A stretch of DNA of 64,000 nt from Sphingomonas sp. (GCF_048595155.1 NZ_JBMDXN010000005.1:21015-85014), one strand, 5' to 3'. Numbered from the stretch's first letter, positions 4,711 through 64,000 are shown. Notes: generated by a model from the sequence alone, not told the origin. Program-made: numbers and translations.

Positions 4711-4775
4711 TCCGGCGCCCCTTAATCCGACGTCCATCTTTCGGTAAGGGATCGTGGTTCCCAGCCTCCGCTGGG

Positions 4776-5168: not shown

Positions 5169-5177
5169 ATTGCGCAG

Positions 5178-5711: not shown

Positions 5712-5739
5712 CAAGCGCATTCAGGGTTCCCAGCGCCTC

Positions 5740-20600: not shown

Positions 20601-20829
20601 GACCACCTTCGCGGCCCTGTTCGCCGCGCTGCCGCTGATCCTGGGAAGCGGGATGGGTGCGGAGCTGCGGCGGCCGCTGGGTCTCGCCATTGCCGGCGGT
20701 CTGATCGTCAGCCAGGCGCTTACCCTATTCACGACCCCGGTAATCTTCCTCGGCTTCGAACGGCTGTCGGCACGCGTGCGCCGCAAGCGGGAAGAGGAGC
20801 CGCAACTGCCCTTGCAGCAGCCAACATGA
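17653..20829 (+). CDS. mdtB: RND multidrug efflux permease, MdtB-type
   Basis: 1058 aa; 12-TM AcrB/HAE1 architecture; GTGA overlap with mdtA; tandem with a second RND pump as in mdtABC. Confidence 0.9.
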
Positions 20830-23800: not shown

Positions 23801-24134
23801 GATCATCGACTTCGCGCTGGATGCCGAACGCTCGCGCGGGTTGAGCCCGATGGCGGCCATCCGCGAGGCGAGCCTGTTGCGGTTCCGGCCGATCCTGATG
23901 ACGACCATGGCCGCCGCCTTCGGCGCGCTGCCGCTGGCGATCGGCTTTGGAGAAGGCGCGGAATTGCGGCGTCCGCTGGGCATCGCGATCATGGGCGGAC
24001 TGATCGCGAGCCAGTTCCTGACGCTGCTGACCACGCCGGTCGTCTATCTGGCACTCGACCGTTTCCGCCGCCGCTCCTCCCGCGAGAAGATGCTGGCGCG
24101 TCAGGCCGCAACCCAAGGAATCCAGCCCGTATGA
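20826..24134 (+). CDS. mdtC: RND multidrug efflux permease, MdtC-type, with a low-complexity insertion
   Basis: 1102 aa; colinear with the upstream MdtB paralog except for a 71-aa T/S/A-rich insert; ATGA overlaps on both sides. Confidence 0.9.
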
Positions 24135-38289: not shown

Positions 38290-39296
38290 ACGAGATTAGT
38301 GCAATTGCTCCGGCGCCGGTGGCGCCGCTGGATCGCGGCGACGTTGCCGCGCTCTTCAACCTTCCGTTCATGGAGCTGGTTTTTCGCGCGGCCGAGATAC
38401 ACCGCCTGCACCACGACCCCAATCGCGTCGAACGTGCGACCCTGCTGTCGATCAAGACCGGTGGGTGTGCCGAGGATTGCGGCTATTGCTCGCAATCGGC
38501 CTATGCCGAGAGCGGCCTGAAAGCCTCCAAGCTGATGGACGTGGACGCCGTGCTGGAAGCGGCGCGCGAAGCCAAGGCGGCGGGATCGGAACGCTTCTGC
38601 ATGGGCGCGGCATGGCGCGAGCCCAAGGACCGCGACATGGATGCCATCTGCGCGATGGTGGAGGGCGTGAACGCGCTGGGGCTGCAGAGCTGCATGACGC
38701 TGGGGATGCTGAGCGACGAACAGGCGCAGCGGCTGGGCGACGCCGGGCTCGATTATTACAACCACAATCTCGACACGTCGCCCGAACATTATGACAAGGT
38801 GATCACGACGCGCACGTGGCAGGACCGGCTCGACACGCTGGATCGGGTGCGCGGGCAGGGGATCAATGTCTGCTGCGGCGGCATCGTCGGGATGGGTGAG
38901 ACTCGGGAGGACCGTGTCGGCTTTCTCCACGCTTTGGCGACCTTGCCCGAGGCGCCGGAGAGCGTGCCGATCAACGCGTTGGTGCCGGTGCCGGGCACGG
39001 TGCTGGGCGATATCCTGAAGGACGTGCCGAGCGCGCGCATCGACGATATCGAGTTTGTCCGGACGGTCGCCGTCGCGCGCATCCTGATGCCCACGTCGGT
39101 CGTGCGCCTTTCCGCCGGGCGTGAGAGCATGTCCGAGGCGACACAGGCTTTGTGCTTCCTCGCCGGCGCCAGTTCAATCTTCACCGGCGACAAGCTGCTG
39201 ACGACCGGCAATGCGGGAACCGACAAGGACAGCCTGTTATTCGCGAAGCTTGGGCTGAATGCGGCTGCGCAAAGCGAACCGGCGCCGATGGCATGA
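38286..39296 (+). CDS. bioB: biotin synthase
   Basis: 336 aa; radical-SAM [11 protein letters not shown], later YNHNLDTS and [10 protein letters not shown] motifs; ATGA overlap with the mutase. Confidence 0.92.
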
Positions 39297-39333
39297 TGGA
39301 CGATCGTCAAGGCGACGGATTGCTGGAGCGCTG

Positions 39334-45740: not shown

Positions 45741-47657
45741 ATGATCCAATCCCTTCTTATCGCCAACCGCGGTGAAATCGCCCGGCGGATCATGCGGACG
45801 GCGCGCGCCTTGGGGGTTCGCACGATCGCCGTATATTCGGAGGTCGATGCGGCCATGCCGTTCGTGCGGGAGGCGGATGATGCGGTCTGCATCGGACCCG
45901 CGCCTGCACGGGAAAGCTACCTGGACCAGGCCAAGATCCTGGCGGCGGCGCGGCAAACCGGGGCGGAGGCGATCCACCCCGGCTATGGCTTCCTGTCGGA
46001 AAATGCGGACTTCGCAGAAGCCGTCATCGCGGCCGGACTGGTGTGGGTCGGCGCGCCACCCGCGGCGATCCGCGCTATGGGGCTGAAGGATGCTGCCAAG
46101 GCTCTGATGAGTGAAGCCGATGTGCCGGTAACGCCTGGCTATCTGGGCGAAGATCAGTCGACAGAGCGTTTGCACGCTGAGGCGGACGCGATCGGGTATC
46201 CTGTCTTGATCAAGGCCGTCGCCGGCGGCGGCGGGAAGGGAATGCGCCGCGTGGAAAGGTCCGGCGACTTTTCCGATGCGCTCGCCTCGTGTCGGCGTGA
46301 GGCCGCGTCCTCCTTCGGCGACGATCGCGTGCTGCTGGAAAAGTATATCCTCAATCCGCGGCATATCGAGGTGCAGGTGTTCGGCGATATGCACGGCAAT
46401 GTCGTGCATCTGTTCGAGCGCGACTGCTCGCTGCAGCGCCGCCACCAGAAAGTGATCGAGGAAGCGCCCGCGCCGGGCATGGATGGGGCGACACGGGAGG
46501 CGATCTGCGCCGCCGCGGTAAAGGCGGCCAAGGCGGTCGATTATGTCGGCGCAGGCACGATCGAGTTCATCGCCGACGCCTCCGAAGGGCTGCGCGCCGA
46601 CCGCATCTGGTTCATGGAGATGAACACCCGGCTACAGGTCGAGCATCCCGTCACCGAGGAGATTACGGGGCAGGACCTGGTCGAGTGGCAGCTTCGCGTC
46701 GCCAGCGGCGAGCCTTTGCCGAAGCGGCAGGAGGAACTCTCGATTAACGGCTGGGCGATGGAAGCGCGGCTCTATGCCGAAGATCCGGCGCGCAACTTCA
46801 TGCCATCGATCGGCCCTATCGATCATCTCGTGCTACCTGCTGACATACGGTGCGACAGCGGCGTTGAGGAGGGCGGCGAAGTGTCTTCCTTCTATGATCC
46901 CATGATCGCCAAGCTGATCGCGCACGGCCCAGCTCGCGACGACGCCATTGCGGATCTGGCGGCGGCCTGCGCCGACGTTCAATGCGAGCCGGTGAAGACC
47001 AACGCCTGGTTTCTGGTACGCATCTTGGAGAGCCCGCCTTTTCAGGCAGGGAAAATGACGACCAATACCATCGCCGAACTTGGGGACGCGCTGGTTGCCG
47101 CGCCTGAGCCAAGTGAGGATTTGCTTCAGGTCGCCGCAAGCGCAGCCGTCTTCGACAGCGGCGTCGCTCCAGCCAGACTGGGCGAGCCTGCCTTTGCGCG
47201 TTTCGCCGGCCTCCTGGGATTTCGGCTCAACCGGCCGCCGGATCAACGCGTCCGGCTGGACGTCGACGGCAGCTTCCGTGAGGTCACCTTCGATCTGCTT
47301 GCGGAAGATGATACGCGTCTCCAGCATTTCGGCGCGACGCGAAGCGACACATCAACGATCCTGTTCGAGGACGGCGCTGCCTATGTGACGTCAGCCTATG
47401 TTCCGCGCGCGTGTCGCGATGGTGCGATAGGGTCCGGCGCGGTCAGCGCCCCCATGCCCGGCCGGATCGTTTCCGTAGAGGTGCACCAGGGTATGAAGGT
47501 CGAAGCCGGACAACGTCTGGTGGTGCTGGAGGCGATGAAGATGGAACAGGCCCTGATCGCACCTTTCGCAGGCACGGTCGGCGAACTTTCCGCCCGAGCG
47601 GGCGCGCAGGTAAGCGAGGGCACCGTGCTGGTGCGCATCGAGCGCGAGGACGCGTAA
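45741..47657 (+). CDS. mccA: methylcrotonyl-CoA carboxylase alpha subunit (biotin carboxylase + BCCP)
   Basis: 638 aa; MIQSLLIANRGEIARR, ATP-grasp, LEAMKME biotinylation motif. Confidence 0.9.
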   Translation: MIQSLLIANRGEIARRIMRTARALGVRTIAVYSEVDAAMPFVREADDAVCIGPAPARESYLDQAKILAAARQTGAEAIHPGYGFLSENADFAEAVIAAGLVWVGAPPAAIRAMGLKDAAKALMSEADVPVTPGYLGEDQSTERLHAEADAIGYPVLIKAVAGGGGKGMRRVERSGDFSDALASCRREAASSFGDDRVLLEKYILNPRHIEVQVFGDMHGNVVHLFERDCSLQRRHQKVIEEAPAPGMDGATREAICAAAVKAAKAVDYVGAGTIEFIADASEGLRADRIWFMEMNTRLQVEHPVTEEITGQDLVEWQLRVASGEPLPKRQEELSINGWAMEARLYAEDPARNFMPSIGPIDHLVLPADIRCDSGVEEGGEVSSFYDPMIAKLIAHGPARDDAIADLAAACADVQCEPVKTNAWFLVRILESPPFQAGKMTTNTIAELGDALVAAPEPSEDLLQVAASAAVFDSGVAPARLGEPAFARFAGLLGFRLNRPPDQRVRLDVDGSFREVTFDLLAEDDTRLQHFGATRSDTSTILFEDGAAYVTSAYVPRACRDGAIGSGAVSAPMPGRIVSVEVHQGMKVEAGQRLVVLEAMKMEQALIAPFAGTVGELSARAGAQVSEGTVLVRIEREDA

Positions 47658-50953: not shown

Positions 50954-52180
50954 TTACAGCGTGACGACGTTCGAGGAACGTACACGCTCCGGCAGCGCAT
51001 CCATATAGGCGCTGGCCATCGGCTCATCGTCCATCACGACGGTCTCACCGGCAGTGAAGCCGTTGAAGCCGGTCCGCATCGCGCTGCCATAGGCACCGAG
51101 CATGCCGATCTCGATATAATCGCCAGCCTGGACGTCGGCCGGCAGCATGAACGGCCCGGCCATATGATCGATATCGTCACAGGTCGGCCCATAGAAGCTG
51201 AACGCCATGTCCTTGGTGCCCGAAATTTCCTCACGCACCAGCTCGACCGGAAAACGCCAACCGACATGCGCGGCATCGAACAAGGCGCCATAGGCACCGT
51301 CGTTGATGTACAGCTGGTCGCCGCGGCGCTTTTCGACCCGAACGAGCAGGCTCGCATATTCGGCGCACAGTGCACGACCCGGCTCCGCCCACAATTCGGC
51401 CGAATAGGAGATCGGCAGCGCCTCGAACGCATCGTGGATGGCGTCGAAATAGGCCTCGAGCGGCGCCGGCTCCATGCCCGGATAGATGGACGGAAAGCCG
51501 CCGCCGACATCGATCACGTCCACCGTCACGGCCGCCTCGACGATCGCGTTGCGAACGCGGCCAAGCGCGTTGACATAGGCAGAGGGTGACATCGTCTGGC
51601 TGCCGACATGGAAGCAGATGCCAAGCGCATCCGCGGCCTGACGAGCCGCAAACAGCAGCGCCTTGGTCTCGCCCGGCTCCGCACCGAACTTCGATGCCAG
51701 GCTGAGCTTGGCATAGTCGGACGGCACCCGCAGGCGCACGCACAGGGTCAGGTCGGTCGCCTGATCAGTGGCGCGCATGATCTTGTCCAACTCCTCGATC
51801 GAATCCAGCGAGAAGGTGCGGACGCCATGATCGAAATAGGCTTCGCGGATCGCTTCCTCGGCCTTGACCGGGTGCATGAAGCATAGAGTCGCACGTGGCG
51901 CGATCTGCGCCACAAGGCGCACTTCCGCGATCGAAGCCACGTCGAAATGGGTGATACCGCTGTCCCACAATTGCCGGATCAGATCCGGCGAGGGATTCGC
52001 CTTCACGGCGTAGAGCGAGCGGCCCTTGAACTTCTCCACGAAGAAGCGGGCAGCGCGGTGCGCAGCGTGCGGACGGATGAGCGTGACCGGCTGGACCGGA
52101 CGCCCGTTAGCGATTTCAAGGCTCGTCGGAGCCTTGTTCGGGGTGGCCGCTAGCCCCAGCGCGTTATGTTGCTTGTGCAA
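50954..52180 (-). CDS. type III PLP-dependent ornithine/basic amino acid decarboxylase
   Basis: 408 aa; YAVKANP (PLP lysine), GGGFP, CDDID-type C-terminal motif; TTG start with GGAGG 9 nt upstream, no in-frame ATG nearby. Confidence 0.85.
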   Translation of the reverse strand: MHKQHNALGLAATPNKAPTSLEIANGRPVQPVTLIRPHAAHRAARFFVEKFKGRSLYAVKANPSPDLIRQLWDSGITHFDVASIAEVRLVAQIAPRATLCFMHPVKAEEAIREAYFDHGVRTFSLDSIEELDKIMRATDQATDLTLCVRLRVPSDYAKLSLASKFGAEPGETKALLFAARQAADALGICFHVGSQTMSPSAYVNALGRVRNAIVEAAVTVDVIDVGGGFPSIYPGMEPAPLEAYFDAIHDAFEALPISYSAELWAEPGRALCAEYASLLVRVEKRRGDQLYINDGAYGALFDAAHVGWRFPVELVREEISGTKDMAFSFYGPTCDDIDHMAGPFMLPADVQAGDYIEIGMLGAYGSAMRTGFNGFTAGETVVMDDEPMASAYMDALPERVRSSNVVTL

Positions 52181-52198
52181 TTCAAGGGACCTCCAGTG

Positions 52199-52216
52199 CC
52201 GCAGGCGAACCTGCGG
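52199..52216 (-). other. stable hairpin in the decarboxylase 5' leader
   Basis: mRNA sense CCGCAGG-UUCG-CCUGCGG (7-bp stem, UUCG tetraloop) ending 4 nt upstream of the GGAGG Shine-Dalgarno. Confidence 0.3.
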
Positions 52217-52350
52217 TCAACAGTTGAAAAAAACTGCCTTGCGGTGGAAGTCCCATGGGGCAGCGGACGCGCTACATAGGAGTGGGTACCCCCCATGTAA
52301 AGTTTCAATCGCAGAAGAAATCCGGCCCCAGCTTTTCGATAGGATAAACC

Positions 52351-53313
52351 GTGAGTTTTCAGAGTTATAGTGAGGTTCGCGCGCCCTCCCGCGACGGGAT
52401 TTTAGCGGCGGTCGATCGGGTGGCCAATGTGGCGACGCGCACACCCTTGCTCCCGCTTCCGTCCGCGGCAGGCGGCATCTGGATCAAGGCTGAGTCGCTG
52501 CAGCTGGGTGGGGCCTTCAAGCTGCGCGGCGCCTATAACCGCCTCGCCCAGATACCGGAGGAGCAGCGCGCTGCGGGCGTGGTCGCCTTTTCCTCGGGCA
52601 ACCATGCGCAGGGGGTGGCGCGCGCCGCGCGGATCCTTGGCATGCCTGCGGTGATCGTGATGCCTGCGGACGCGCCGGCGGTGAAGCTGCAGGCCACCAA
52701 GGCCTTGGGGGCCGATATCGTGACATATGATCGGCACCGCGAAAGCCGCGAGCAGATTGCGGCCGATCTGGCGGCGCAGAAGGGCGCCGTGCTGGTGCCC
52801 TCTTTCGACGATGTCGACGTTATCGAGGGGCAGGGCACGACGGGGATCGAGATGGCGGAGCAGCTGGGTCGAAGCCCAGCGCGGGTCGCGATACCCTGTG
52901 GTGGCGGTGGCCTGTCAGCGGGGATCGCGCTGGCATTGCCTGAGGCAGAGATCATCGTGGTCGAGCCGGAAGGCTGGGACGACATGACACGCTCGCTCGC
53001 ATTGGGAGAGATCGTGCCCGTTGCCGACGATGCGCCTGTCACTTCGTGCGACGCCCTGCAGACCAAGCGCGTTGCGGAGCGAACATTCTCGGCATTGGCG
53101 GCGGCCGGGGCGCGCGGTCTTTCAGTTGCGGAAGAGGAGATCCGCGTGGCGATGCGCTACGCATTCGCGCAGGGGCTGGTGGTGGAGCCGGGTGGCGCCG
53201 TCGCTTTGGCGGCGTGGCTGGCGGGCAAGCTGCCACCGATCGATGGCGACACGGTGCTCGTCTGTTCGGGCTCCAATGTCGATCCGCGGGCATTTGCCGA
53301 GGTGATCGGCTAA
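52351..53313 (+). CDS. PLP-dependent threonine/serine dehydratase family enzyme (serine racemase-like)
   Basis: 320 aa, GTG start; LQLGGAFKLRGA (PLP Lys), SSGNHAQGVA, GGGGL loop. Confidence 0.8.
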   Translation: MSFQSYSEVRAPSRDGILAAVDRVANVATRTPLLPLPSAAGGIWIKAESLQLGGAFKLRGAYNRLAQIPEEQRAAGVVAFSSGNHAQGVARAARILGMPAVIVMPADAPAVKLQATKALGADIVTYDRHRESREQIAADLAAQKGAVLVPSFDDVDVIEGQGTTGIEMAEQLGRSPARVAIPCGGGGLSAGIALALPEAEIIVVEPEGWDDMTRSLALGEIVPVADDAPVTSCDALQTKRVAERTFSALAAAGARGLSVAEEEIRVAMRYAFAQGLVVEPGGAVALAAWLAGKLPPIDGDTVLVCSGSNVDPRAFAEVIG

Positions 53314-53337
53314 GACGCCGTACAATGTGGGTGAAGG

Positions 53338-54147
53338 ATGATGGGCATGGGCGGACGCATCAGGGTTGGCATTGGTGGCTGGACCTTCGAACCCTGGCGA
53401 GGCCTCTTCTATCCGGAAGGCTGGCCGAAGGCGCGCGAACTGGAATATGCATCCAGCCAGCTCACCGCGATCGAGATCAACGGCACTTTCTACTCGACGC
53501 AAAAGCCGGCGACGTGGGCGGACTGGGCGAAGCGGACCCCGGACGACTTCGTCTTCGCGATCAAGGCCTCGCGCTTTTGCGTGAACCGGCGGGTCCTGAG
53601 CGAGGCGGGGGAGTCGATCGACAAGTTCCTCAACCAGGGCTTGGCGGAATTAGGGCCTAAGCTCGGACCGATCTTGTGGCAGTTCGCCGCCACCAAGCAG
53701 TTCGATCCCGATGATCTTGCCGGCTTCCTTGCCCTGCTGCCGAAGAGCGTTGGCGGCGTCCCGCTGCGCCACGCGATCGAGCCGCGGCACGAAAGCTTTC
53801 GCAATCCGGCGCTGCTTGAGCTCGCCCGCACGGCCGGCGTGGCGATCGTCTTTGCGGATGATGAGGACAAATATCCGCAATTTGCGGATCTGACCGCGGA
53901 TTTCGTCTATGCCCGCCTGCAGAACCAGCGGGAGGAGGAGATGACCGGCTATCCGCCGCAGGACCTCGACCGATGGGCGAAAACCGCCCGGGCGTGGGCC
54001 GACGGCACCGCTCCGGGCGGCTATTCCTATATCGTGCCCCCCGCCCAAGAGCGGGAGCAGCCGCGCGATGTGTTCGTCTTCATGATCAACGGCGCCAAGG
54101 TGCGCGCGCCAGCGGCCGCCACCGGGCTGATCGCGCGGCTACGCTAA
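53338..54147 (+). CDS. DUF72-family protein
   Basis: 269 aa; IRVGIGGWTFEPWRG..YP..L.YA....TAIEINGTFY pattern typical of DUF72. Confidence 0.78.
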   Translation: MMGMGGRIRVGIGGWTFEPWRGLFYPEGWPKARELEYASSQLTAIEINGTFYSTQKPATWADWAKRTPDDFVFAIKASRFCVNRRVLSEAGESIDKFLNQGLAELGPKLGPILWQFAATKQFDPDDLAGFLALLPKSVGGVPLRHAIEPRHESFRNPALLELARTAGVAIVFADDEDKYPQFADLTADFVYARLQNQREEEMTGYPPQDLDRWAKTARAWADGTAPGGYSYIVPPAQEREQPRDVFVFMINGAKVRAPAAATGLIARLR

Positions 54148-54151
54148 AGCG

Positions 54152-54349
54152 ATGCGCACCATCTCCAACGACGTCGCGGTCCGGCTATATCACCTTGATG
54201 ATGAAGGTGGGGTTGCGACAACTTTGCTCTACGGCTCTCTTGCCGAAGCTTTGGCGGCGGCGGCAGCACAGCCGGAAGACATGCAGCCTGGATTGTATTT
54301 GCAGACAAGCAACGACGTCGTCGCCTATCTGGATCTGATCGAAGGCTGA
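54152..54349 (+). CDS. small hypothetical protein (65 aa)
   Basis: ORF starts 5 nt after the DUF72 stop; balanced composition; no recognisable motif. Confidence 0.35.
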   Translation: MRTISNDVAVRLYHLDDEGGVATTLLYGSLAEALAAAAAQPEDMQPGLYLQTSNDVVAYLDLIEG

Positions 54350-54539
54350 CTTCGATCACCACCGGAGTGTTGCCGGTTTGCATCGATTGCGTGTGCCGGT
54401 GTCACGAACGCGACACAATCGCTTCCTACGGCAATCTCGGGCAAGAACCGGATCGGTCGGCCCCAATGACAGCGAGAGGAACATGTCGGGTGGGATGCGA
54501 AACGCACCCGCCTCATTTCACGACCTAAGGGGAATTTGT

Positions 54540-56855
54540 TTGAGCTTCGTAGTCAAGAAATCCGCGCTCGCCCTGAGCGCGTCGATCGGTGCTATTCTGT
54601 TTGCCACCGCAGCTGCCGCGCAGGACGCGCCTGCGGCCACGGCTGCAGCGGCCAGCGACGATCTTGGGGAAATCACCGTCACGGCGCAGCGCCGTTCGGA
54701 GAATCTGCAGAACGTTCCGGTATCGGTAGGCGTGATCAGCGGTGCCGACCAGCGCACCTTCACGTCGGGCGGCGATGATACATTGCTCTCGCTGTCTGGC
54801 CGCGTGCCGAGCTTGTATATCGAATCGACCACGGGCCGCATCTTCCCGCGCTTCTACATTCGCGGCCTCGGCAACATCGATTTCTATCTGGGCGCCTCGC
54901 AGCCGGTATCGATCATCCAGGACGATATCGTTCTCGAGCATGTGGTGCTGAAGTCGAACCCGGTGTTCGACGTCGGCCAGGTTGAAGTCTTGCGCGGCCC
55001 GCAGGGTTCGCTGTTCGGCCGCAACACGACTGCCGGCATCATCAAGTTCGACACCAATCGCCCAACCCAGACCTTCGAGGGGCAGGGCCAAGCATCGTAT
55101 GGCAGCTACAACACCGTCACCTTCGATGGCGGGGTCGGTGGCCCGCTCGTCGCCGACAAGGTCGCCTTCCGCCTTTCGGCTCTGTATCAACATCGCGACG
55201 ATTACGTCGACAACACGTTCAACGGCGCGAGCGCAGACGGGACGGTCACGCCCAAGAAGAACGCCATGGGCGGCTTCAATGAGCGCGACGTGCGCCTGCA
55301 ATTGCTGTTCACGCCTACGGACAAGCTGTCGGTCCTGCTTTCGGGCCATGCCCGCGATTATGACGGCACCGCGACCCTGTTCGAGCGCGGCTATCTCCGC
55401 AAGGGTTCGAACAAGCCTATCGGGCCGCGCAACGAGGTCGCCTATGACGAAGCGCAGAACAATCCGCAGGCTTACAAGACCTATGGCGCATCGGCACACA
55501 TCTCTTACGATTTCGACTTTGCGACGCTAACGTCGATCACCGGCTACGAAACCACGTCCGGTTATAGCCGGGGCGACACGGACGGTGGCGCGGCCGCGAA
55601 CTTCCCTTTCAACGGGGTGCCCAACGGCTTTGGCGAATCCCAGGGCCAGATTCGCGATCTCGATCAGTGGACGCAGGAAGTGCGCCTCGCCAGCAACGGC
55701 GAGAGCCGCTTCAAGTGGCAGGTCGGCGGCATCTACTTTGACAGCCGTGACACGACCGATTTCTACCAGCGTGGCTATTTCCTGACGACCGCCGCGCGCA
55801 ACCCGAACAATTGGGTGCGGCTGCATAACATCAACACGTCGTGGGGCATCTTCGGGCAGGTCAGCTATGCCCTTACCGACAAGCTGACGATCACGGCGGG
55901 CGCGCGGGAAACCAAGGACACGAAGAGCACACGTCTCCTCAAGACGGCCGACACCGCTGCCGGCGCCGTAACCTATACCGGTCGTCGCTATGTGCGCCTG
56001 TCGGACAAGGAGCCGAGCTGGGATGCGAGCCTGCTCTATCAGATCGACCCGAACGTCAGCGTCTATGCCCGCGCCGCACGCGGCTTCCGCGGGCCGACCA
56101 TCCAAGGTCGCTCGGCCGTGTTCAACGCGGATTTCACCACCGCGAATTCAGAAAAGAACACGTCGTTCGAGGCAGGCTTCAAGAGCAGCCTGTGGGACAA
56201 TCGCCTGCGCTTCAACGCGACAGCCTTCGCCTACACGGTCAAGGACATCCAGCTGAACGGCAATGACAGCAACGGCAATGGCGTGCTGTTCAACGCGGAC
56301 AAGGCAAAGGCCTATGGTCTGGAAGGCGATATCGAGCTGCGGCCGGTGCGCAACCTGACCCTGACCGCGGGCGCCAGCTATCTGCACAGCCGGATCGACG
56401 ACAAGAATGTCTTCGCCCAGGCATGCAGCCTGAACGGCGTCCTGGTCTGCACCGTGGAGGATCCGCTGATCACGCGGGGCACCGGCACTGGCACCACCTA
56501 CTTCGCGCAGATCAACGGCAATCCCTTGCCGCAGGCGCCAAAATATAACCTCAACTTCGCCGCACGCTATGACCTGCCGATCAGCGAGACGGGCAAGATC
56601 TTCGTGGCGACCGACTGGAACGTGCAGGGCTATACCAGCTACGTCCTGTACAAGACCAAGGAGTTCACCTCGAAGGGGAATTTCGAAGGTGGCGCAAAGA
56701 TCGGCTATAGCGGCAATAACGGTGCCTATGAGATCGCCATTTTCGCGCGCAACATCACAAACGAGAAGAATCTGAAGGGCGTGATCGAGAATTATATGGC
56801 TGCGGTTTACAACGACCCGCGGATCATCGGTGTCTCGGTATCGGGCAAGTTCTAA
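54540..56855 (+). CDS. TonB-dependent outer-membrane receptor
   Basis: Start set at in-frame TTG 54540 (AAGGGGA 7 nt upstream), giving signal peptide ..KKSALALSASIGAILFATAAAAQ; plug (EITVTAQRR..NVP), beta-barrel, C-terminal ..SGKF. Confidence 0.85.
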   Translation: MSFVVKKSALALSASIGAILFATAAAAQDAPAATAAAASDDLGEITVTAQRRSENLQNVPVSVGVISGADQRTFTSGGDDTLLSLSGRVPSLYIESTTGRIFPRFYIRGLGNIDFYLGASQPVSIIQDDIVLEHVVLKSNPVFDVGQVEVLRGPQGSLFGRNTTAGIIKFDTNRPTQTFEGQGQASYGSYNTVTFDGGVGGPLVADKVAFRLSALYQHRDDYVDNTFNGASADGTVTPKKNAMGGFNERDVRLQLLFTPTDKLSVLLSGHARDYDGTATLFERGYLRKGSNKPIGPRNEVAYDEAQNNPQAYKTYGASAHISYDFDFATLTSITGYETTSGYSRGDTDGGAAANFPFNGVPNGFGESQGQIRDLDQWTQEVRLASNGESRFKWQVGGIYFDSRDTTDFYQRGYFLTTAARNPNNWVRLHNINTSWGIFGQVSYALTDKLTITAGARETKDTKSTRLLKTADTAAGAVTYTGRRYVRLSDKEPSWDASLLYQIDPNVSVYARAARGFRGPTIQGRSAVFNADFTTANSEKNTSFEAGFKSSLWDNRLRFNATAFAYTVKDIQLNGNDSNGNGVLFNADKAKAYGLEGDIELRPVRNLTLTAGASYLHSRIDDKNVFAQACSLNGVLVCTVEDPLITRGTGTGTTYFAQINGNPLPQAPKYNLNFAARYDLPISETGKIFVATDWNVQGYTSYVLYKTKEFTSKGNFEGGAKIGYSGNNGAYEIAIFARNITNEKNLKGVIENYMAAVYNDPRIIGVSVSGKF

Positions 56856-57008
56856 CCGACTATTCGCCTTGGCCTAAATGAAGCGGGCGGCGGTGCTTGG
56901 TTGCCGTCGCCCGTCTTCTTTCCCAACTTATGTTGGGAGGAACTGTCTGATTTTACGCCCGTTTTCTGTGGCATGCCCATCGTCCCAGGTGGCATGCGGG
57001 AGACGGCA

Positions 57009-57860
57009 ATGCGTATCCACCATCTGAATTGCGGCACCGACTGCCCGATCGGGGGCGCGCTGTTCGACGGACGAAGCCTGGGCCTTACCGGGCGGCTGGT
57101 CTGCCATTGCCTTCTCATCGAAACCAATCGCCATGGCCTGGTGCTGGTCGACACCGGCTATGACCTGAAGGATGTCGATCATCCGCATCGTAAGCCGCAT
57201 CCCCGCATCACGCGCTTTATGCGCGGCTTGCTCAACATCCGCCTGCGCGAAGACGAGACCGCGATCCGACAGATCGAGGCATTAGGCTTTCACGCCAGCG
57301 ATGTGCGGCACATCGTCCTGACTCATCTCGATTTCGACCATGCCGGCGGCCTTGAGGATTTTCCGAACGCTGCCGTTCACGTGATGCAGAAGGAATATGA
57401 CAGCGCGAGCGGCCCGCGCCGCGGCTTCGTCCTGCGCAACCGCTACCGCCCTTCGCAATATGATCAGCTTAATAACTGGCGGACCTATGGTGCGCAGGGC
57501 GAGCGCTGGTTCGGTTTCGATGCGGTTCGCGACCTTGATGGGCTGCCGCCCGAGATATTGCTGGTTGCGCTGCCGGGCCACACCTGGGGCCATGCCGGCG
57601 TCGCGATCCGGACCGGCACGGGCTGGCTGCTCCACGCGGGGGACGCCTATTTCTACCGGGGCGAGATGCGCCAGGCGACGCGGCGCTGCACCCCGGGCTT
57701 ACGCGCCTATCAGAACATGATGGAAGTCGATCGAGCAGCCCGGCTAGACAATCAGGCCCGGTTGCGCTCGCTCTCGGTGGAGCGATCGCGCGAGCTCAAC
57801 ATCGTGTGCGCCCATGATCCAGCAGAGTTCGAGCGCGCGCGGGCAGGGGAGTTGTTGTAG
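57009..57860 (+). CDS. MBL-fold metallo-hydrolase
   Basis: Start at ATG 57009 (MRIHHLNCG); THLDFDHAGG metal motif, LPGHTWGH. Confidence 0.8.
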   Translation: MRIHHLNCGTDCPIGGALFDGRSLGLTGRLVCHCLLIETNRHGLVLVDTGYDLKDVDHPHRKPHPRITRFMRGLLNIRLREDETAIRQIEALGFHASDVRHIVLTHLDFDHAGGLEDFPNAAVHVMQKEYDSASGPRRGFVLRNRYRPSQYDQLNNWRTYGAQGERWFGFDAVRDLDGLPPEILLVALPGHTWGHAGVAIRTGTGWLLHAGDAYFYRGEMRQATRRCTPGLRAYQNMMEVDRAARLDNQARLRSLSVERSRELNIVCAHDPAEFERARAGELL

Positions 57861-57893
57861 GCCCGGTCCTCATCCTGCGTACCGGAGAACGAC

Positions 57894-58673
57894 ATGGACC
57901 TTGGGATCAGCGGCAAAACAGCGCTCGTATGTGCATCGAGCCAGGGATTGGGCCGCGGCTGTGCCACCGCATTGGCGGCGGCAGGGGCTCGCGTGATTAT
58001 CAACGGGCGCGATGCGGAACGCCTGCAGCGGGCTGCCGAGGAAATTGCCGAGACAACCGGCGCCCAGATTATTCCAGTGGCGGCCGACGTCGGGACGGAC
58101 GACGGGCGGGAGGCGCTTTTGGCCGCCGCGGGCGAGATCGACATCCTGGTCAACAACAATGGCGGACCGCCGGCGGCGGATTTTCTGACGCTCGATCGTG
58201 GCAAGCTTCTGACGGGGATCGAGGCGAATATGATCACGCCGATCCTGCTGGCCCAGGCAGTCATTCCGGGCATGATCGAGCGCCGGTTCGGGCGGATCGT
58301 CAACATTACCTCCGGCTCGGTCAAGATGCCGCTGGCAGGGCTCGATCTTTCTAGTGGCGCACGGCTGGGCCTGACCGGCTTTCTGGCCGGCGTAGCCCGG
58401 CAGATTGCCTATGCCAATGTGACGATCAACGGGCTCTTGCCGGGCGCTTTCGACACTGCACGTATTCACGCGCTCAACGCCAAGCGAGCGGCAGAGACGG
58501 GGAGCAGCCGTGAGGACGTTGCCAACCAGCGGATGCAGACCATTCCCGCCAAGCGGCTTGGGCAGCCGGACGAATTCGGCGCCGCCTGTGCCTTTCTGTG
58601 TTCGGTCCACGCGGGCTATATCACGGGGCAGAATATCCTGATCGACGGAGGCGCTTTTCCCGGCGTGCTGTAA
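57894..58673 (+). CDS. SDR-family oxidoreductase
   Basis: 259 aa; CASSQGLGRG cofactor loop, NNNGG, C-terminal GYITGQNILIDGG. Confidence 0.88.
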   Translation: MDLGISGKTALVCASSQGLGRGCATALAAAGARVIINGRDAERLQRAAEEIAETTGAQIIPVAADVGTDDGREALLAAAGEIDILVNNNGGPPAADFLTLDRGKLLTGIEANMITPILLAQAVIPGMIERRFGRIVNITSGSVKMPLAGLDLSSGARLGLTGFLAGVARQIAYANVTINGLLPGAFDTARIHALNAKRAAETGSSREDVANQRMQTIPAKRLGQPDEFGAACAFLCSVHAGYITGQNILIDGGAFPGVL

Positions 58674-58807
58674 GCGCTTGTGATCCGACGCATATATTGC
58701 GTCGTCCGCCGAAAAGTTCGGCCGTCGCCTGAACCGATCGGCCGCCTTTCTGTTTTTCCTATGTGGAATGCGGCTGAAGTCGCTCGGTAGATCAAGGAGT
58801 TAAGACC

Positions 58808-59935
58808 GTGAGGAAGAGGCTTTTGGCCTGGGGCGGATTAGGTGTCGGCCTCGCGATCGCTGGCGGCTTTGCCGGCAGCGCCGCGCTTGCGCGCGTGCGG
58901 CGGCCGCTGGAGTGGATCGCCGACTTCGATCATCAGGTAACAGGCGTCGCGGCTACCGACGACGGCCGCATCTTCGTCAATTTTCCGCGATGGACCGACG
59001 ACGCCCCTATCTCGGTGGGAGAGTTGATGCCGGACGGTGGCGTGCGACCATATCCCAATGCCGAATGGAATAGCTGGCGCAATGCGAAGGCCGGCAAGAT
59101 GCCGGTCGAAAAACATTTCGTGTGCGTTCAGTCGATCGTTCCCGATCGGCGTGGCAACCTGTGGGTGCTCGATCCCGGCGCACCCGGCAATGAGAAGATA
59201 TTGCCAGGCGCTCCTAAGTTGGTGAAGATCGATCTGGCGCGTGATCGCGTAACCAAGATCATCCCGATCCCCGAAGATGTCGCGCTCCAAGGCAGTTACC
59301 TCAACGACATCCGCTTCTCGCCCGATGGGAAGCTTGGTTATATCACCGACAGCGGAACCCGCGGCGCGATCATCGTCGTGAACCTCGCCAGCGGCGAGAG
59401 TTGGCGCGCGCTGGACGGTCATGTCTCGACGCAGGTGGACAAGAGTGTCGAGGTACGGATCGATGGAAAGCAGCTCGTCCGGCCTGACGGGCGTCAGCCG
59501 ATGTTCTCCGCTGACGGGATAGCCTTATCGAACGATGGGAAGACTTTGTTTTACCAGGCCCTTACGGGCGAAACCCTCTATTCTATCGCAACCGCAAAAC
59601 TGCGGCGGGACGTATCTGAGGAGGATCGAAGCGCCGCGGTCGAAAGGGTGGCGCAAACCCACGTGGCCGACGGCTTATGGCTAAGCCGCGACGAGGTCCT
59701 CTACCTGACATCGCCGACGGATTATTCAATTACGCGGCTGGACGGGGATCGAACCGAGACAGTCCTGATCGATCGGCGGCTACGTTGGCCGGATACATTC
59801 TCGGAGGGGCCCGACGGCCGCATCTACATCACTGCCAGCCACATCCAGGACACGATGTGGTTTAAGCCCGGCGCGCCGGCGTCGATCCGCACATCGTTGT
59901 TCTCCTTCCTTCCGGAAGATGTCAGCAACAGGTGA
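58808..59935 (+). CDS. major royal jelly / yellow family (L-dopachrome tautomerase-related) protein
   Basis: 375 aa, GTG start with AAGGAG 8 nt upstream; signal/TM N-terminus; FVNFPRW, NLWVLDPG, YLNDIRF..GYITDSG beta-propeller repeats as I recall for bacterial MRJP proteins. Confidence 0.72.
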   Translation: MRKRLLAWGGLGVGLAIAGGFAGSAALARVRRPLEWIADFDHQVTGVAATDDGRIFVNFPRWTDDAPISVGELMPDGGVRPYPNAEWNSWRNAKAGKMPVEKHFVCVQSIVPDRRGNLWVLDPGAPGNEKILPGAPKLVKIDLARDRVTKIIPIPEDVALQGSYLNDIRFSPDGKLGYITDSGTRGAIIVVNLASGESWRALDGHVSTQVDKSVEVRIDGKQLVRPDGRQPMFSADGIALSNDGKTLFYQALTGETLYSIATAKLRRDVSEEDRSAAVERVAQTHVADGLWLSRDEVLYLTSPTDYSITRLDGDRTETVLIDRRLRWPDTFSEGPDGRIYITASHIQDTMWFKPGAPASIRTSLFSFLPEDVSNR

Positions 59936-59956
59936 GCGAACCCTCGCGGCGGTAAA

Positions 59957-59978
59957 CCGGCCTTATTGATCAGGCCGG
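59957..59978. terminator. hairpin between convergent genes (possible bidirectional terminator)
   Basis: CCGGCCT-N8-AGGCCGG (7-bp stem) 22 nt after the MRJP stop, overlapping the stop codon of the minus-strand ORF. Confidence 0.4.
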
Positions 59979-60358
59979 AAGTCGCGCCGTCTGAAGTTAC
60001 TCCGATCCGTCTGAAAGGAGAAAGCGGCGGCGCCGGTGTCGCCGAGCGGCACGACCGCGCTTCCATAGGTCGATCGATAGCCACCCGTGCCGACCGCCAC
60101 GCCGACCTCGCCATGGATGCGGCCATCCGGGGCAATGCCGTTGTCATCGATCGGGCGAGCGGGATGCGACGCGCCATATTCCAGCGCCGCCTCCCGCTCC
60201 TCCGGCGTGAGGCGGACGGTGCCCGGAACCGACGGGTCGGCCGGTATCGTACCCGAGAAAAAAGGCGCCTCAGTTTGCTGAGGTTGTGACTGGGCCAGCA
60301 GTGGCGTCGCCACCGCGATCATCAGGAACAGGGCCGGACGGAAGATCTTCATTATCAT
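59963..60358 (-). CDS. small secreted hypothetical protein
   Basis: 131 aa; signal peptide MIMKIFRPALFLMIAVATPLLAQ; 65 nt downstream of, and co-directional with, the kinase gene. Confidence 0.5.
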   Translation of the reverse strand: MIMKIFRPALFLMIAVATPLLAQSQPQQTEAPFFSGTIPADPSVPGTVRLTPEEREAALEYGASHPARPIDDNGIAPDGRIHGEVGVAVGTGGYRSTYGSAVVPLGDTGAAAFSFQTDRSNFRRRDFRPDQ

Positions 60359-60423
60359 CCTTCTTGGCGGGAATTAAGCGCACAGCGCATGTCCCCTGCC
60401 TGAACAAAGCCCCACCAAAGGGG

Positions 60424-62097
60424 TCACCGCGGCGCGCGGCGTTCGCGATGTCCTTGCAGGGATATGACATTATCGTCGCTGTTACCCAAACGGTTGAGCG
60501 CCTCGGCCAGTTCGATCAGATTGAAGGGCTTGTTGAGAACGGGAAGACCCAGCACCGGTTCTGATGCCCCGGTATAGCCGGTCACTAGCAGGATCGGCAG
60601 CATCGGTCGTTCCCGCCGTATCCGGCGGGCGAGCTCGCCGCCGTCCATCCGCGGCATCTTATAGTCGGTGATAACCGCATCAAGTTCGAGACCAGCGTCC
60701 AATTTAGCTAACGCTTCCTCTCCGGTGCTCGCCTCGATGATATCGTGCCCCAGGTCACGCATCATCTCGGCGGTGCCCTTGCGGACGAGTTCCTCATCAT
60801 CCACGAACAGAATAGTCATTCGTCGTGTCTGCGGAGCAGGCGCCTGTTCGGAACGGCTGGGCACGGTCGCGCGGCGCTCGTTGGTGACGGGCAGGAAGAA
60901 GTCAGCTCGGGTGCCCTTGCCTGGGTTGCTCGAGAGGGTGAAAGCGCCGCCCAATTGCCCAGCCAGCCCATGCACCATCGACAAGCCAAGCCCCGTGCCG
61001 CGGCCGGTTTCCTTGGTCGAGAAAAAGGGCTCGACTGCGCGCGCCAGGGTCGGCGCATCCATCCCGATACCCGTATCGATAACCGAGAGCCGCACGTAGA
61101 GGCCGGGAGTCAACTTGCTGTCGCTGCCTGGATCGATCAGTACCTGCTCGGCCGCAACGGTGAGGATGCCGCCGTTCGGCATGGCATCGCGCGCATTAAC
61201 GCAGAGGTTCAGGATCGCGAGCTCCAGCTGATTTGGGTCCGCCAGCGCACGCGGCACGTCAGCGGAGCAATGCAGGCGAAGTTCAATCGTTGAGCCGGCC
61301 GAACTGGCGATCAGATCGCGCATGCCCTCCAGCAGCTCGCACAAATCCACCGGTCCGGTCTGCAGCACCTGGCGGCGCGCAAAGCCAAGCAGCCGCTGCA
61401 CCAGCGTTTTTGCGCGCTCACCCGACTGCAAGGCATGGCCGATCAGCCGGTCGACGCGGGCATCGTTGCCGGAAACTTTCCGCTGTAGCAGATCGAGCGC
61501 GCCAATGATCGGCGTGAGCAGATTGTTGAAATCGTGCGCAACGCCGCCGGTGAGCTGCCCCAATGTCTCCAGCTTCTGGGCTTCGTGAAGCTGCTGGACG
61601 GCCAACTCGCGCTCCCGCGTGCGCTCCTCGACGCGCTGCTCCAGTTCCGCGGCAAGAGCGTGCAACTGATCCAACCGTGCTCGCGCCTCATACTGGCGCA
61701 GCCGCCCGCGTCGGGCAGCCTGGGCAAGGCTGATCAACGTAGTGGGGTGGAAGGGGCGCTCCAGAAAGGTGACGTTCCCCAGCATCGCAAGGTAGCGACC
61801 GGCCGCAGGGTTGCGCTCCAGTCCACCGCCGCGCTGCGTCAGTAATATGAAAGGGAAATCCGACCATTCCGGCTGCGTCTCGATCCAGGCCGACAGCGCG
61901 TGTAGGTCTGCATCGCGCAGCGCCTCCTCCGTGATGAGGCCGAAACCGGCGCCGGCCACAAGCTCGGCGCGCAGCTGCCCGATCGACGCGCAAACGAAGC
62001 TGGAGAAGCCTTTTTCCGCCAGCATGGCAGAGGCTACGGCGGCGTCGCGACCCTGGGGCGCCAGGATCAACGCGCGTTCGGATAAATGCGGTATCAA
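60424..62097 (-). CDS. hybrid histidine kinase: N-terminal pseudo-receiver, HisKA, HATPase_c, C-terminal receiver
   Basis: 557 aa, TTG start overlapping the KaiC-like stop (TTGA); H-box VAHDFNNLLTPI, G-box GTGLGLS, receiver ILFVDDE..VITDYKMPRMDG..LLVTGY. Confidence 0.88.
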   Translation of the reverse strand: MIPHLSERALILAPQGRDAAVASAMLAEKGFSSFVCASIGQLRAELVAGAGFGLITEEALRDADLHALSAWIETQPEWSDFPFILLTQRGGGLERNPAAGRYLAMLGNVTFLERPFHPTTLISLAQAARRGRLRQYEARARLDQLHALAAELEQRVEERTRERELAVQQLHEAQKLETLGQLTGGVAHDFNNLLTPIIGALDLLQRKVSGNDARVDRLIGHALQSGERAKTLVQRLLGFARRQVLQTGPVDLCELLEGMRDLIASSAGSTIELRLHCSADVPRALADPNQLELAILNLCVNARDAMPNGGILTVAAEQVLIDPGSDSKLTPGLYVRLSVIDTGIGMDAPTLARAVEPFFSTKETGRGTGLGLSMVHGLAGQLGGAFTLSSNPGKGTRADFFLPVTNERRATVPSRSEQAPAPQTRRMTILFVDDEELVRKGTAEMMRDLGHDIIEASTGEEALAKLDAGLELDAVITDYKMPRMDGGELARRIRRERPMLPILLVTGYTGASEPVLGLPVLNKPFNLIELAEALNRLGNSDDNVISLQGHRERRAPR

Positions 62098-63575
62098 TCC
62101 GCTACAATCGCGTCGGCCACGCTCTTGTCCACGAGCGTCGGCACACCGCGCAGGACCCCGTGGAAGTTGAACAGCGGCTGGCCCAAACTTACGCCGGACG
62201 CGTCGATCCTGAATTCGCGGATCGTATCTTCATGCGCACTGGTGCGTTTCTTGATCACCGAAATAGCTCGGCGCACCCGGGCTTGCGCCTCAAAATAGCG
62301 CAGCAGGATGACCGTGTCCGCGAGGTAGGTCACATCGACCGGCGCCTTCATATCGCCGACAAAGCCGTGCTGCGCGACCGTCAGGAAAGTCGATGCGCCC
62401 TGGCGGTTAAGATATTGCAGCAGCTCATGCATGTGCAGGATCAGCGCCTGTTCCGCCGGCATCGCAGCCTGATAGCCGTTCAAACTATCAATTATGACCG
62501 TGCTGGCTTGCTGCACCTCGACGCAGGCGCGTACGCGCTCAGAAAATTCGCCGGGGCTCAACTCCGCCGCATCGACCTGCTCGATCAGCAATTTGCCTGC
62601 ATCCACAAACGCTTGAAGATCGATATTGAGACCGCGAGCGCGATCGAACAACAGACCGAGCTCTTCATCGAAGACGAACATTGCCGCCTTTTCTTGGCGC
62701 TCCATCGCCGCCACGATGAAGGTAAGGGCGAGCAGCGATTTGCCGGTACCGGCAGGCCCGAGAATCAGAACGCTGGAGCCGCGTTCCACGCCGCCGCCCA
62801 GCAAAGCATTCAACTCCGGCGATCCCGTGCGCATCGGCTCGCGGGAAAAAAGTGTTTTATGCTCCGCAGATACCAGGCGGGGGAAAACACGTGCACCGCC
62901 GGTGTCGATCACAAAGTCGTGATACCCGCCTCTGTAACGTTGGCCGCGATATTTGATCACACGCATCCGCCGGCGTTCTGATCCATAATCGGGCGATAGT
63001 TCTTCAAGCCGGACCACCCCGTGCGCGATGCTATGCATCGTCCGGTCATTGGCTTCCGCCGTCATGTCGTCGAGCATCAGCACGGTCGCATTATGACGCG
63101 AGAAATAATGCTTAAGGGCAAGAATTTGACGTCGGTAGCGCAACGAGCTTTGCGCAAGAAGCCGGATTTCGGAGAGGCTGTCGATCACCACGCGGTTGGG
63201 CTTCAGCGTCTCGAACCGCTCGAAGATGCGCTTCGTCGTTTCGCCGAGTTCCAAATCGGATGAGTAAAGCAGGCTCTGTTGCTGATCATCGTCCAGCAGG
63301 CTTTCCGGCGGTATCAGCTCGAAGATATCGACACCCTCAAGGGACCAGCCATGCGATGCGGCGCCCGCGCGAAACTCGGCTTCCGTTTCCGATAGGGTGA
63401 CATAAAGGCAAGTCTCGCCGGCAGCCGCGCCGGCGATCAGCCATTGCGTGGCGATCGTCGTCTTGCCCGTGCCCGGAGACCCTTCGAGCAGGAATAGCCG
63501 CGCCCGCGCGAGGCCCTTGGTTACGTCGTCCAGCCCTTTGATGCCGAACAGCGCATATTCTGCTAGGTCAGTCAC
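62094..63575 (-). CDS. kaiC: KaiC-like double-domain RecA-superfamily ATPase
   Basis: 493 aa, GTG start with AAGGAAG upstream; two Walker A motifs (GSPGTGKT, GPAGTGKS); C-terminal DTVILLRYFE..RRAISVIKKRTSAHEDTIREFRI matches remembered KaiC CII sequence. Confidence 0.85.
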   Translation of the reverse strand: MTDLAEYALFGIKGLDDVTKGLARARLFLLEGSPGTGKTTIATQWLIAGAAAGETCLYVTLSETEAEFRAGAASHGWSLEGVDIFELIPPESLLDDDQQQSLLYSSDLELGETTKRIFERFETLKPNRVVIDSLSEIRLLAQSSLRYRRQILALKHYFSRHNATVLMLDDMTAEANDRTMHSIAHGVVRLEELSPDYGSERRRMRVIKYRGQRYRGGYHDFVIDTGGARVFPRLVSAEHKTLFSREPMRTGSPELNALLGGGVERGSSVLILGPAGTGKSLLALTFIVAAMERQEKAAMFVFDEELGLLFDRARGLNIDLQAFVDAGKLLIEQVDAAELSPGEFSERVRACVEVQQASTVIIDSLNGYQAAMPAEQALILHMHELLQYLNRQGASTFLTVAQHGFVGDMKAPVDVTYLADTVILLRYFEAQARVRRAISVIKKRTSAHEDTIREFRIDASGVSLGQPLFNFHGVLRGVPTLVDKSVADAIVAD

Positions 63576-63687
63576 CCGTCTTCCTTAACCATAATCGGCG
63601 AAGCGCGCATCAGCGCATCGTTTACGATGCCGATATGGCAGCAATCGACGTTCCGGCCATTAATCCCAAGCAACTTACTGACAGCAA

Positions 63688-64000
<313 letters not shown>

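Follow-up and report, generated by a model that had tools for sequence, protein, structure and literature searches.

A KaiC-like ATPase gene overlapping a hybrid histidine kinase gene with an N-terminal pseudo-receiver: a probable KaiB-independent two-gene cassette in Sphingomonas sp.

Within a stretch of 64,000 nucleotides (nt) from Sphingomonas sp. (GCF_048595155.1, NZ_JBMDXN010000005.1:21015-85014; hereafter the window, with coordinates counted from its first letter) two overlapping genes occupy positions 60424-63575. The upstream one, as delimited by open reading frame (ORF) calling, encodes a KaiC-like double RecA-type ATPase/autokinase of 493 amino acids (aa) with a GTG start (62094..63575, minus strand), and is preceded, 4 nt 5' of this codon, by a Shine-Dalgarno-like (SD) AAGGAAG that can be read directly from the sequence (63580..63586, minus strand). 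The downstream one, supported by both ORF calling and Pfam, encodes a soluble hybrid histidine kinase of 557 aa with a TTG start (60424..62097, minus strand), and the two genes share the tetranucleotide TTGA (62094..62097, minus strand), in which the start of the kinase overlaps the TGA stop of the KaiC-like gene. An earlier note on this DNA had described both ORFs and their overlap, and the ORF calls as well as the sequence bear it out. We consider that the locus is probably a self-contained, KaiB-independent two-gene cassette, in which an N-terminal pseudo-receiver of the kinase reads the state of the KaiC-like protein.

The KaiC-like protein contains the KaiC domain in two copies (PF06745, Pfam, E 2e-68), and its two Walker A motifs read GSPGTGKT (32-39) and GPAGTGKS (273-280); the combination of Pfam with alignments to solved KaiC (7dy1 and 4o0m) delimits a CI domain (aa 11-233, 62877..63545, minus strand) and a CII domain (aa ~248-480, 62136..62834, minus strand). 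KaiC structures of the PDB align with residues 10-485 (E 3e-53 to 1e-38): the top structural-database match is a KaiC chain (8zn5, E 3e-53), an entry cited by a study on reconstructed ancestral KaiCs (PMC12081879), and the Thermosynechococcus and Synechococcus KaiC structures match at ~1e-42 to 1e-38. Within CII, the alignment includes ...DVTYLADTVILLRYFE...RAISVIKKRTSAHEDTIREF... of the KaiC-like protein against ...HISTITDTILLLQYVE...RAINVFKMRGSWHDKGIREY... of solved KaiC, so that the double RecA-like organization, the paired Walker A motifs and the CII likeness that the earlier note had recognized all hold. Matches to RecA and RadA are confined to the surroundings of the P-loop (PDB RadA, E ~2e-4), and the RadA/Sms model TIGR00416 gives 52.6 bits against a cut-off of 403, over the P-loop region only, whereas KaiC models align end to end. 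By these alignments the protein is a member of the KaiC family and not of RadA/Sms, as had been proposed. It falls short of the cut-offs of both NCBIfam KaiC equivalogs (PRK09302, 257.5 bits vs 408; TIGR02655, 145.2 bits vs 546), shares 26% identity with T. elongatus KaiC and 29% with the KaiB-linked KaiC of Cereibacter sphaeroides, and, with most of the attributes that define a clock KaiC lacking, its sequence is not that of one. An exact copy of the protein was absent on look-up in a contig collection.

Signature residues were mapped on the alignment with 7dy1/4o0m KaiC, and their invariance was judged over 81 family sequences. CI retains its Walker A residues (K38/T39, invariant), and the catalytic glutamate pair of clock CI (E77-E78) is replaced by an invariant S62-E63. 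In CII the Walker A residues are likewise retained (K279/S280; K279 invariant, position 280 being Ser in 79 sequences and Thr in 2), and the acidic pair E318-E319 is kept as an invariant D303-E304, with Asp as its first residue. Basic residues of clock KaiC are also retained (K224/R226 as K208/R210, K457/R459 as K442-K443/R444). The phosphosites S431-T432 have their equivalents, by alignment, in T416-Y417 (codons ACC TAC, 62325..62330, minus strand), a dyad that is invariant in the family, and the position of T426 corresponds to a gap (i.e. the residue is deleted); the dual phosphosite and T426 of clock KaiC are thus not found. The C-terminal tail extends just 10 residues past the last aligned position and is unconserved among relatives. 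Furthermore, a search of 1.84 billion representatives recovered 1471 proteins at E<=1e-30, and in the 105 full-length proteins among the best 150 of these (33-56% identity to the KaiC-like protein) the phosphosite dyad is SY in 66, SF in 14 and TY in 10 (i.e. [S/T]-[Y/F] in 90/105), with a CI dyad that is mostly SE, SQ, AE or AQ, not EE. These dyads indicate that the KaiC-like protein belongs to a large clade distinct from clock KaiC. The alignment also reveals a B-loop-like insertion in CI; as a docking site this region was considered and dropped, being conserved in close relatives and variable in its N-terminal part among the 33-56% representatives, where only ELGE is kept.

The kinase comprises a HisKA/DHp domain (aa 179-243, 61369..61563, minus strand, Pfam) with the phospho-acceptor His188 (codon 61534-61536) in the motif VAH188DFNN, a HATPase_c domain (aa 287-405, 60883..61239, minus strand, Pfam E 9e-19) and a canonical C-terminal receiver (aa 429-531, 60505..60813, minus strand, Pfam E 2e-17) that carries D433-D434, the phospho-acceptor D478 (codon 60664-60666), T506 and K523. 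With its conserved His, its HATPase_c and a receiver with the DD/D/T/K residues, it has the full complement of a hybrid histidine kinase of the HisKA type. No hydrophobic segment was detected in it (the peak Kyte-Doolittle value in a 19-residue window is 1.21), and as judged from its domains and hydropathy the kinase is soluble and devoid of a ligand-sensing domain.

Its only N-terminal module (aa 1-150, 61648..62097, minus strand; hereafter the N-domain), which we propose as the KaiC-docking input, had no Pfam match in any of 58 homologues, even at E<=1 and PF00072 included. An AlphaFold2 model built on the alignment of these 58 homologues (pLDDT 89, pTM 0.85) has the (beta-alpha)5 topology of a CheY-like receiver (five strands, five helices), in which the alpha-5 helix (118-149) is long and points towards DHp, and Foldseek retrieves with this model the receivers of DctD, FixJ, PhoB and HupR (probability 1.0, TM 0.6-0.8). 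The absence of a transmembrane segment and the receiver-like nature of this sole N-terminal module, both claimed beforehand, are therefore corroborated by hydropathy and by the predicted fold. In the model A13-P14 follows beta-1 in place of the acidic pair, and T56-E57-E58 follows beta-3. A profile alignment with CheY, the register of which is uncertain by one residue, has Glu57/58 at the position of D57, T87 kept, and R114-P115 for K109-P110. Since it lacks the acidic pair and has Glu for the phospho-accepting Asp, the N-domain is, on model and alignment, a pseudo-receiver and not a working receiver. It possesses a signature of its own: the invariant residues (GRD, 16-18; TEE, 56-58; WSDFPF, 78-83; GGGLERNP, 90-97; FLERPFHPTT, 111-120) are concentrated in loops of the 'active-site' face.

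The pair was followed across genomes by a one-genome-per-species scan, which yielded 527 confirmed relatives, and the best 80 loci were kept; these belong to sphingomonads and some Hyphomicrobiales, and their KaiC-like proteins are 73-87% identical to that of the window. The N-domain directly follows the KaiC-like gene in 80/80 loci. An NTGA overlap joins the two genes in 67 of the 80 and a 1-nt overlap in three, and in nine of the remaining ten the gap is <=10 nt; at locus L005 no kinase start was assigned at the junction. This recurrence of pair and overlap implies that the arrangement is more than chance. Moreover, a 4-mer SD core precedes the kinase start in only 25/73 loci, a scarcity that fits coupling by termination and reinitiation, and the TTGA overlap, the wide conservation of which sustains the initial call, suggests that the two genes are translationally coupled. 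The pair is also present in nine further loci (Agrobacterium fabrum C58 pAt, Sphingobium indicum pSRL1, Paraburkholderia edwinii, Loktanella salsilacus, Mesorhizobium ciceri, Sinorhizobium meliloti 1021 pSymA and three metagenome contigs); the overlap is in most cases the same, and there the identity descends to 41% for the KaiC-like protein and to 30% for the N-domain.

The partner kinases vary around the N-domain, which is their constant element: the core is of the HisKA or the HWE type, the middle holds 0-3 PAS/GAF domains, and between N-domain and core there is nothing (~550 aa, the form of the window), one PAS (~670 aa) or several PAS/GAF (800-950 aa). On pAt of A. fabrum C58 (NC_003064.2, 501370-504907) the KaiC-like ATU_RS26320 (71% identity) is followed by ATU_RS26315, an N-domain-PAS-HisKA-HATPase-REC protein annotated merely as 'response regulator'; a second KaiC-like match lies elsewhere on this plasmid. 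The N-domain is joined to an HWE-type kinase on the plasmids of Loktanella salsilacus (2439-5839), where a single-domain response regulator follows, and of Mesorhizobium ciceri (2520-5011); the KaiC-like genes of these two have been automatically annotated as 'gvpD' or 'ATPase domain-containing protein'. Mean identity is 75% for the KaiC-like protein, 68% for the N-domain and 56% for the kinase core, so that at the level of sequence the N-domain is better conserved than the core to which it is attached, and it diverges in step with the KaiC-like protein (Spearman 0.69, n=87).

Apart from the pair itself, no neighbour (response regulator, Hpt, LabA or sortase) is conserved in the 80 loci, the commonest flank family occurring in <=8 of them, and no further receiver, kinase or N-domain is present in the 64-kb window. 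A plasmid collection contains 264 records with a KaiC-like relative, 210 with an N-domain and 18 with KaiB, and no Pseudomonas record is among the plasmid matches listed. The cassette ranges over Alpha- and Betaproteobacteria and is often plasmid-borne; fragments that consist of the N-domain only are also labelled Steroidobacteraceae (a gammaproteobacterial family). Two kinds of apparent exception were discarded. Of the apparently stand-alone N-domain proteins (150-260 aa), the two that were traced on long contigs (P0131 and P0182) are kinases split into two adjacent ORFs on metagenome contigs, probably by frameshifts, and each comes directly after a KaiC-like gene; partner kinases split in this way (L088, 5001-6667; L089, 5001-7030) make the N-domain look stand-alone in protein databases. 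A fusion of N-domain and EAL (P0210, at 425-1204 of the 1.2-kb metagenome contig L090) was not counted as a phosphodiesterase output, as its match to the EAL profile is limited to the final 47 positions; its N-domain lies directly after a KaiC-like C-terminus (77% identity), and it could be a variant with cyclic di-GMP phosphodiesterase output or an assembly chimera.

KaiB and KaiA were sought with sequence queries, of which that for KaiB was validated by a positive control (it finds annotated KaiB genes on 18 plasmids, including that of Cereibacter sphaeroides at 52% identity), the KaiA query being used without a control. In the window, tblastn with KaiA and KaiB returned noise only (lowest E 0.088 and 0.008, on stretches of 24-33 aa), in agreement with the earlier note, which had reported neither gene there. 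Within +-10 kb of the 80 related loci no KaiB was found even at E<=10 (KaiA was not searched for in them). This includes the closest genome, Sphingomonas sp. ASY06-1R, which is syntenic with window positions 52002-64000 at 78-81% nucleotide identity and spans DNA beyond the window end; an adjacent kaiB just outside the window, which would have spoken against the original proposal, therefore finds no support. A KaiB-like ORF annotated as a hypothetical protein does occur on a plasmid of Sphingobium sp. TomTYG65 (AP027331.1, 62053-62280; 42% identical to Synechococcus KaiB), so by sequence KaiB is not wholly absent from sphingomonads.

On these grounds the cassette may be pictured as follows. 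The KaiC-like protein presumably forms a double-ring hexamer, of which CII would keep all that is needed for ATP binding and for autophosphorylation at T416, and possibly also at Y417 (i.e. K279, D303-E304, the Lys/Arg finger residues and the T416-Y417 dyad itself), and CI would bind nucleotide and serve as a slow or non-hydrolysing structural/binding ring, as is probable from the loss of its first catalytic Glu (S62). Translation of the kinase by termination-reinitiation at TTGA would fix the ratio of the two proteins. The sole input of the kinase would be the pseudo-receiver, which is probably not phosphorylatable in the normal way and which would dock on the KaiC-like hexamer and read its phosphorylation or nucleotide state; docking and readout are proposed because the N-domain, in all loci that could be read, always directly follows the KaiC-like gene. 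From there, the alpha-5/coiled-coil helix could relay the signal to DHp and switch the autophosphorylation of His188, regulation presumably running from the KaiC-like protein to the kinase, and the phosphoryl group would be handed from His188 to Asp478 in the C-terminal receiver, and from there to an Hpt or response regulator whose gene is unlinked. A direct readout by the kinase, independent of KaiB, fits the data on Pseudomonas, where KaiC homologues bind the neighbouring kinase in two-hybrid assays and, for P. putida, in co-immunoprecipitation, kinase residues 1-138 being sufficient (bioRxiv 10.1101/2022.01.26.477890). By analogy with the homologues of Pseudomonas (phosphorylated in stationary phase and affecting osmotic and oxidative stress resistance; bioRxiv 10.1101/2022.01.26.477890) and of Methylobacterium, the output suggested is that the cell adapts, depending on time or energy, to stationary phase or to osmotic, oxidative or UV stress, and not a self-sustained circadian rhythm.

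A more specific proposal, which we advance tentatively and with slightly less than even confidence, is that the N-domain constitutes a distinct pseudo-receiver family, outside Pfam and outside any NCBIfam match to the kinase, that a very widespread two-gene cassette uses as its dedicated input for docking on KaiC and that links the KaiC-like state to HisKA or HWE kinases with or without PAS/GAF domains, analogous to the KaiB-like domain of SasA yet evolutionarily independent of it.

Several points weigh against the cassette as we read it. The docking of the pseudo-receiver is deduced from co-occurrence and conservation only; the Tyr at the second phosphosite and the Asp at the E318 position, as aligned, might alter or abolish the autokinase chemistry; and the response regulator and exopolysaccharide (EPS) sortase usual near Pseudomonas group I are not present here. 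The likeness to that group, as well as that of the N-domain to residues 1-138 of the P. putida kinase (a 'PAS' according to the authors), was judged from the published description only. No promoter or terminator consensus that would delimit the operon was found by the scans reported below. Finally, the window covers 64 kb of the source genome, so that an unlinked kaiB is possible, and one Sphingobium plasmid, as described above, has a KaiB-like gene.

The phosphosite chemistry is what lends weight to the strongest of the rival explanations, which we nevertheless regard as unlikely: that the same cassette takes its signal from the nucleotide or ATPase state (i.e. energy charge or temperature), T416/Y417 being structural and unphosphorylated. 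The second phosphosite is a Tyr, the equivalent of T426 is deleted and the E318 position is Asp, and the occurrence of Phe at the second position in many members of the clade (SF in 14 representatives) implies that phosphorylation of the second residue is not a general feature; whether KaiC is a timer or an ATP sensor is left undecided in the Pseudomonas study itself (bioRxiv 10.1101/2022.01.26.477890). Yet a Ser or Thr at the first dyad position is nearly universal in the clade, and the Pseudomonas group I and group III homologues, as well as KaiC2 of M. extorquens, are phosphorylated in vivo.

Rather less probable still is a KaiBC-type hourglass timer with kaiB elsewhere in the genome, in which KaiB would sit on the ring of CI and the KaiB-KaiC complex would be what the kinase reads, as it is for CikA. 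KaiB genes on some alphaproteobacterial replicons, including the Sphingobium plasmid, the B-loop-like insertion in CI and the restriction of the window to 64 kb of genome would accommodate such a timer, but it is difficult to reconcile with the failure to find KaiB around 80/80 loci and in the syntenic genome, with the plasmid counts (KaiB on 18, KaiC-like relatives on 264), with the mere 29% identity to the KaiB-linked KaiC of C. sphaeroides, with Pseudomonas genomes that have TY-type KaiC homologues without any KaiB, and with the lack of conservation, across the clade, of the N-terminal part of the B-loop region. That the ATPase has no part in signalling, being a RecA/RadA-like protein of DNA repair or of some other function, and lies next to a kinase through incidental operon packing, is very improbable, for the weak matches to RecA, RadA, RadB and DnaB span the P-loop core only and lie far under cut-offs, a partner kinase with this particular N-domain and the overlap of 4 nt are both kept across Alpha- and Betaproteobacteria, and no DNA-repair neighbours are conserved among the loci.

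The surroundings of the KaiB-independent cassette that we favour are ordinary chromosomal DNA with synteny to Sphingomonas sp. ASY06-1R. As previously noted, the cassette is flanked by a DAHP synthase and a small protein of secreted type, i.e. upstream by the C-terminus of a class-II DAHP synthase (63688..63993, PF01474) and downstream by a protein of 131 aa whose N-terminus is signal-like (59963..60358). The second gene downstream of the kinase encodes a 375-aa protein that matches the Major Royal Jelly Protein/yellow family, also with a signal-like N-terminus (58808-59935, plus strand; PF03022, E 2e-24). Farther away, an apparent resistance-nodulation-division (RND) efflux operon (16301-25591, plus strand) consists of a 451-aa ORF, tandem AcrB-like pumps of 1058 and 1102 aa (the first PF00873, E=0) and an outer-membrane efflux protein (PF02321), and the housekeeping context comprises PutA (proline dehydrogenase/aldehyde dehydrogenase; 12394-15492, minus strand) and, on the plus strand, methylmalonyl-CoA mutase (36103-38289), the propionyl-CoA carboxylase alpha subunit (39259-41313), a second biotin carboxylase (45741-47657) and a TonB-dependent receptor (54378-56855).

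Scans of positions 59900-64000 for sigma-70 promoters and terminators gave 0 promoter-like and 4 terminator-like hits (3.4 in shuffles for the latter), i.e. at or below expectation. The EcfG-type general-stress promoter (GGAAC-N15-18-CGTT) has no match near the operon and 2 elsewhere in the window (1.67 expected); one of these (GGAAC-N16-CGTT, 56939-56963, plus strand) lies just inside the start of a metallo-beta-lactamase-fold ORF (56901..57860) and is probably not significant. An Rfam scan of the whole 64-kb window returned no matches. The sequence of 60424-63575 was met only in metagenome runs of the DNA type (straw metagenome) and in no RNA runs; 98% of the 31-mers sampled from it are present in the contigs of a 2025 straw-metagenome run, with partial presence in its sister runs, and the bacterium of origin is an environmental sphingomonad.

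KaiC homologues outside cyanobacteria are abundant and poorly understood, and the locus exemplifies, in minimal form, the arrangement that is commonest in proteobacteria: a KaiC-like ATPase with a kinase whose sole input is the conserved pseudo-receiver. It leaves the current picture of KaiC biology unchanged and is not a new kind of system: the earlier note had called the architecture largely uncharacterised, which does not stand, as Pseudomonas groups I-III and the kaiC2-kaiR2 of Methylobacterium have already been studied, and cassettes of this kind are very common in soil alpha- and beta-proteobacteria and mostly ordinary. The description of the bacterium as non-photosynthetic, also from that note, goes beyond what 64 kb of sequence can show. 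What appears to go beyond the published accounts consulted is the recognition of the N-domain as a distinct pseudo-receiver, uncatalogued in Pfam and a constant partner of this KaiC clade, an annotation that we offer as hypothesis-generating. The locus would provide a clean system for the conversion of a KaiC state into a phosphorelay without KaiB, and it singles out a 150-residue domain and a few invariant loops. Bacteria from soil and those associated with plants commonly carry members of the family, model strains included (A. fabrum C58, on pAt; S. meliloti 1021, on pSymA), which makes genetics accessible. Were the 'PAS' N-terminus of P. putida PP_3835 to prove the same domain, it would amount to a general solution for the read-out of KaiB-less KaiC homologues.

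Among known systems, the cyanobacterial KaiABC clock resembles the cassette in that the state of a double RecA KaiC is read by a histidine kinase (SasA/CikA) through a dedicated N- or C-terminal docking domain. It differs in having KaiA and KaiB, neither of which was found here, and its KaiC is set apart by the 26% identity and the unattained equivalog cut-offs, by E77 (here Ser), S431-T432 (here T-Y) and T426 (here deleted), and by a C-terminal tail that in the window protein is short and unconserved. SasA docks by a KaiB-like thioredoxin fold, whereas the kinase described here has an N-domain of receiver fold and is a hybrid with a receiver of its own. Pseudo-receivers are also used by cyanobacterial CikA and KaiA, and the KaiA N-domain, the CikA pseudo-receiver and plant PRR/TOC1 share with our N-domain a receiver fold without the phospho-accepting Asp, which in their case serves protein-protein signalling in clock-related pathways. 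Plant PRRs have Glu at the phospho-Asp position, as does the kinase N-domain. There is, however, no detectable sequence relationship to these pseudo-receivers, and none of them is among the top 50 Foldseek matches, which are all ordinary response-regulator receivers.

The KaiBC hourglass timers of purple bacteria (Rhodobacter/Cereibacter sphaeroides and Rhodopseudomonas palustris) are likewise built on proteobacterial KaiC homologues, and serve non-self-sustained timing or stress adaptation; unlike the cassette, they are KaiB-dependent and kaiB-linked, and the C. sphaeroides plasmid carries kaiB. Similar in organization is kaiC2-kaiR2 of M. extorquens AM1, where, according to a review (PMC8069551, on Iguchi et al. 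2018), an alphaproteobacterial KaiC homologue is accompanied by a regulator gene with no kaiB in the cluster, and temperature-dependent UV resistance and leaf/phyllosphere colonisation are controlled via the KaiC2 phosphosite. As there described, KaiC2 differs from the window protein in being phosphorylated on a serine (S426), and the genome also harbours kaiC1-kaiB2-kaiB1-kaiR1 (PMC8069551).

Pseudomonas groups I-III (including P. protegens CHA0 and P. putida KT2440 PP_3834/PP_3835; Terrettaz et al., bioRxiv 10.1101/2022.01.26.477890) resemble the window in that a KaiC homologue with two domains shares an operon with a histidine kinase or hybrid kinase, and in the lack of KaiB. Group I is characterized by a TY/SY dyad, a kinase neighbour and the absence of KaiB from 1255 genomes, and its nearest relatives are reported to be alphaproteobacterial (bioRxiv 10.1101/2022.01.26.477890); T416-Y417 is such a dyad at S431/T432, and the kinase gene lies in the same operon. 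The single-domain response regulator and EPS sortase of that group are not nearby, in the 64-kb window or as conserved neighbours in the 80 loci, and the sphingomonad locus differs further from those of Pseudomonas in its own chromosomal setting and its minimal kinase architecture without PAS, the N-terminal module being a pseudo-receiver where that of P. putida is described as a PAS. Compared by description, the Pseudomonas group I KaiC homologue is the closest described system to the Sphingomonas cassette.

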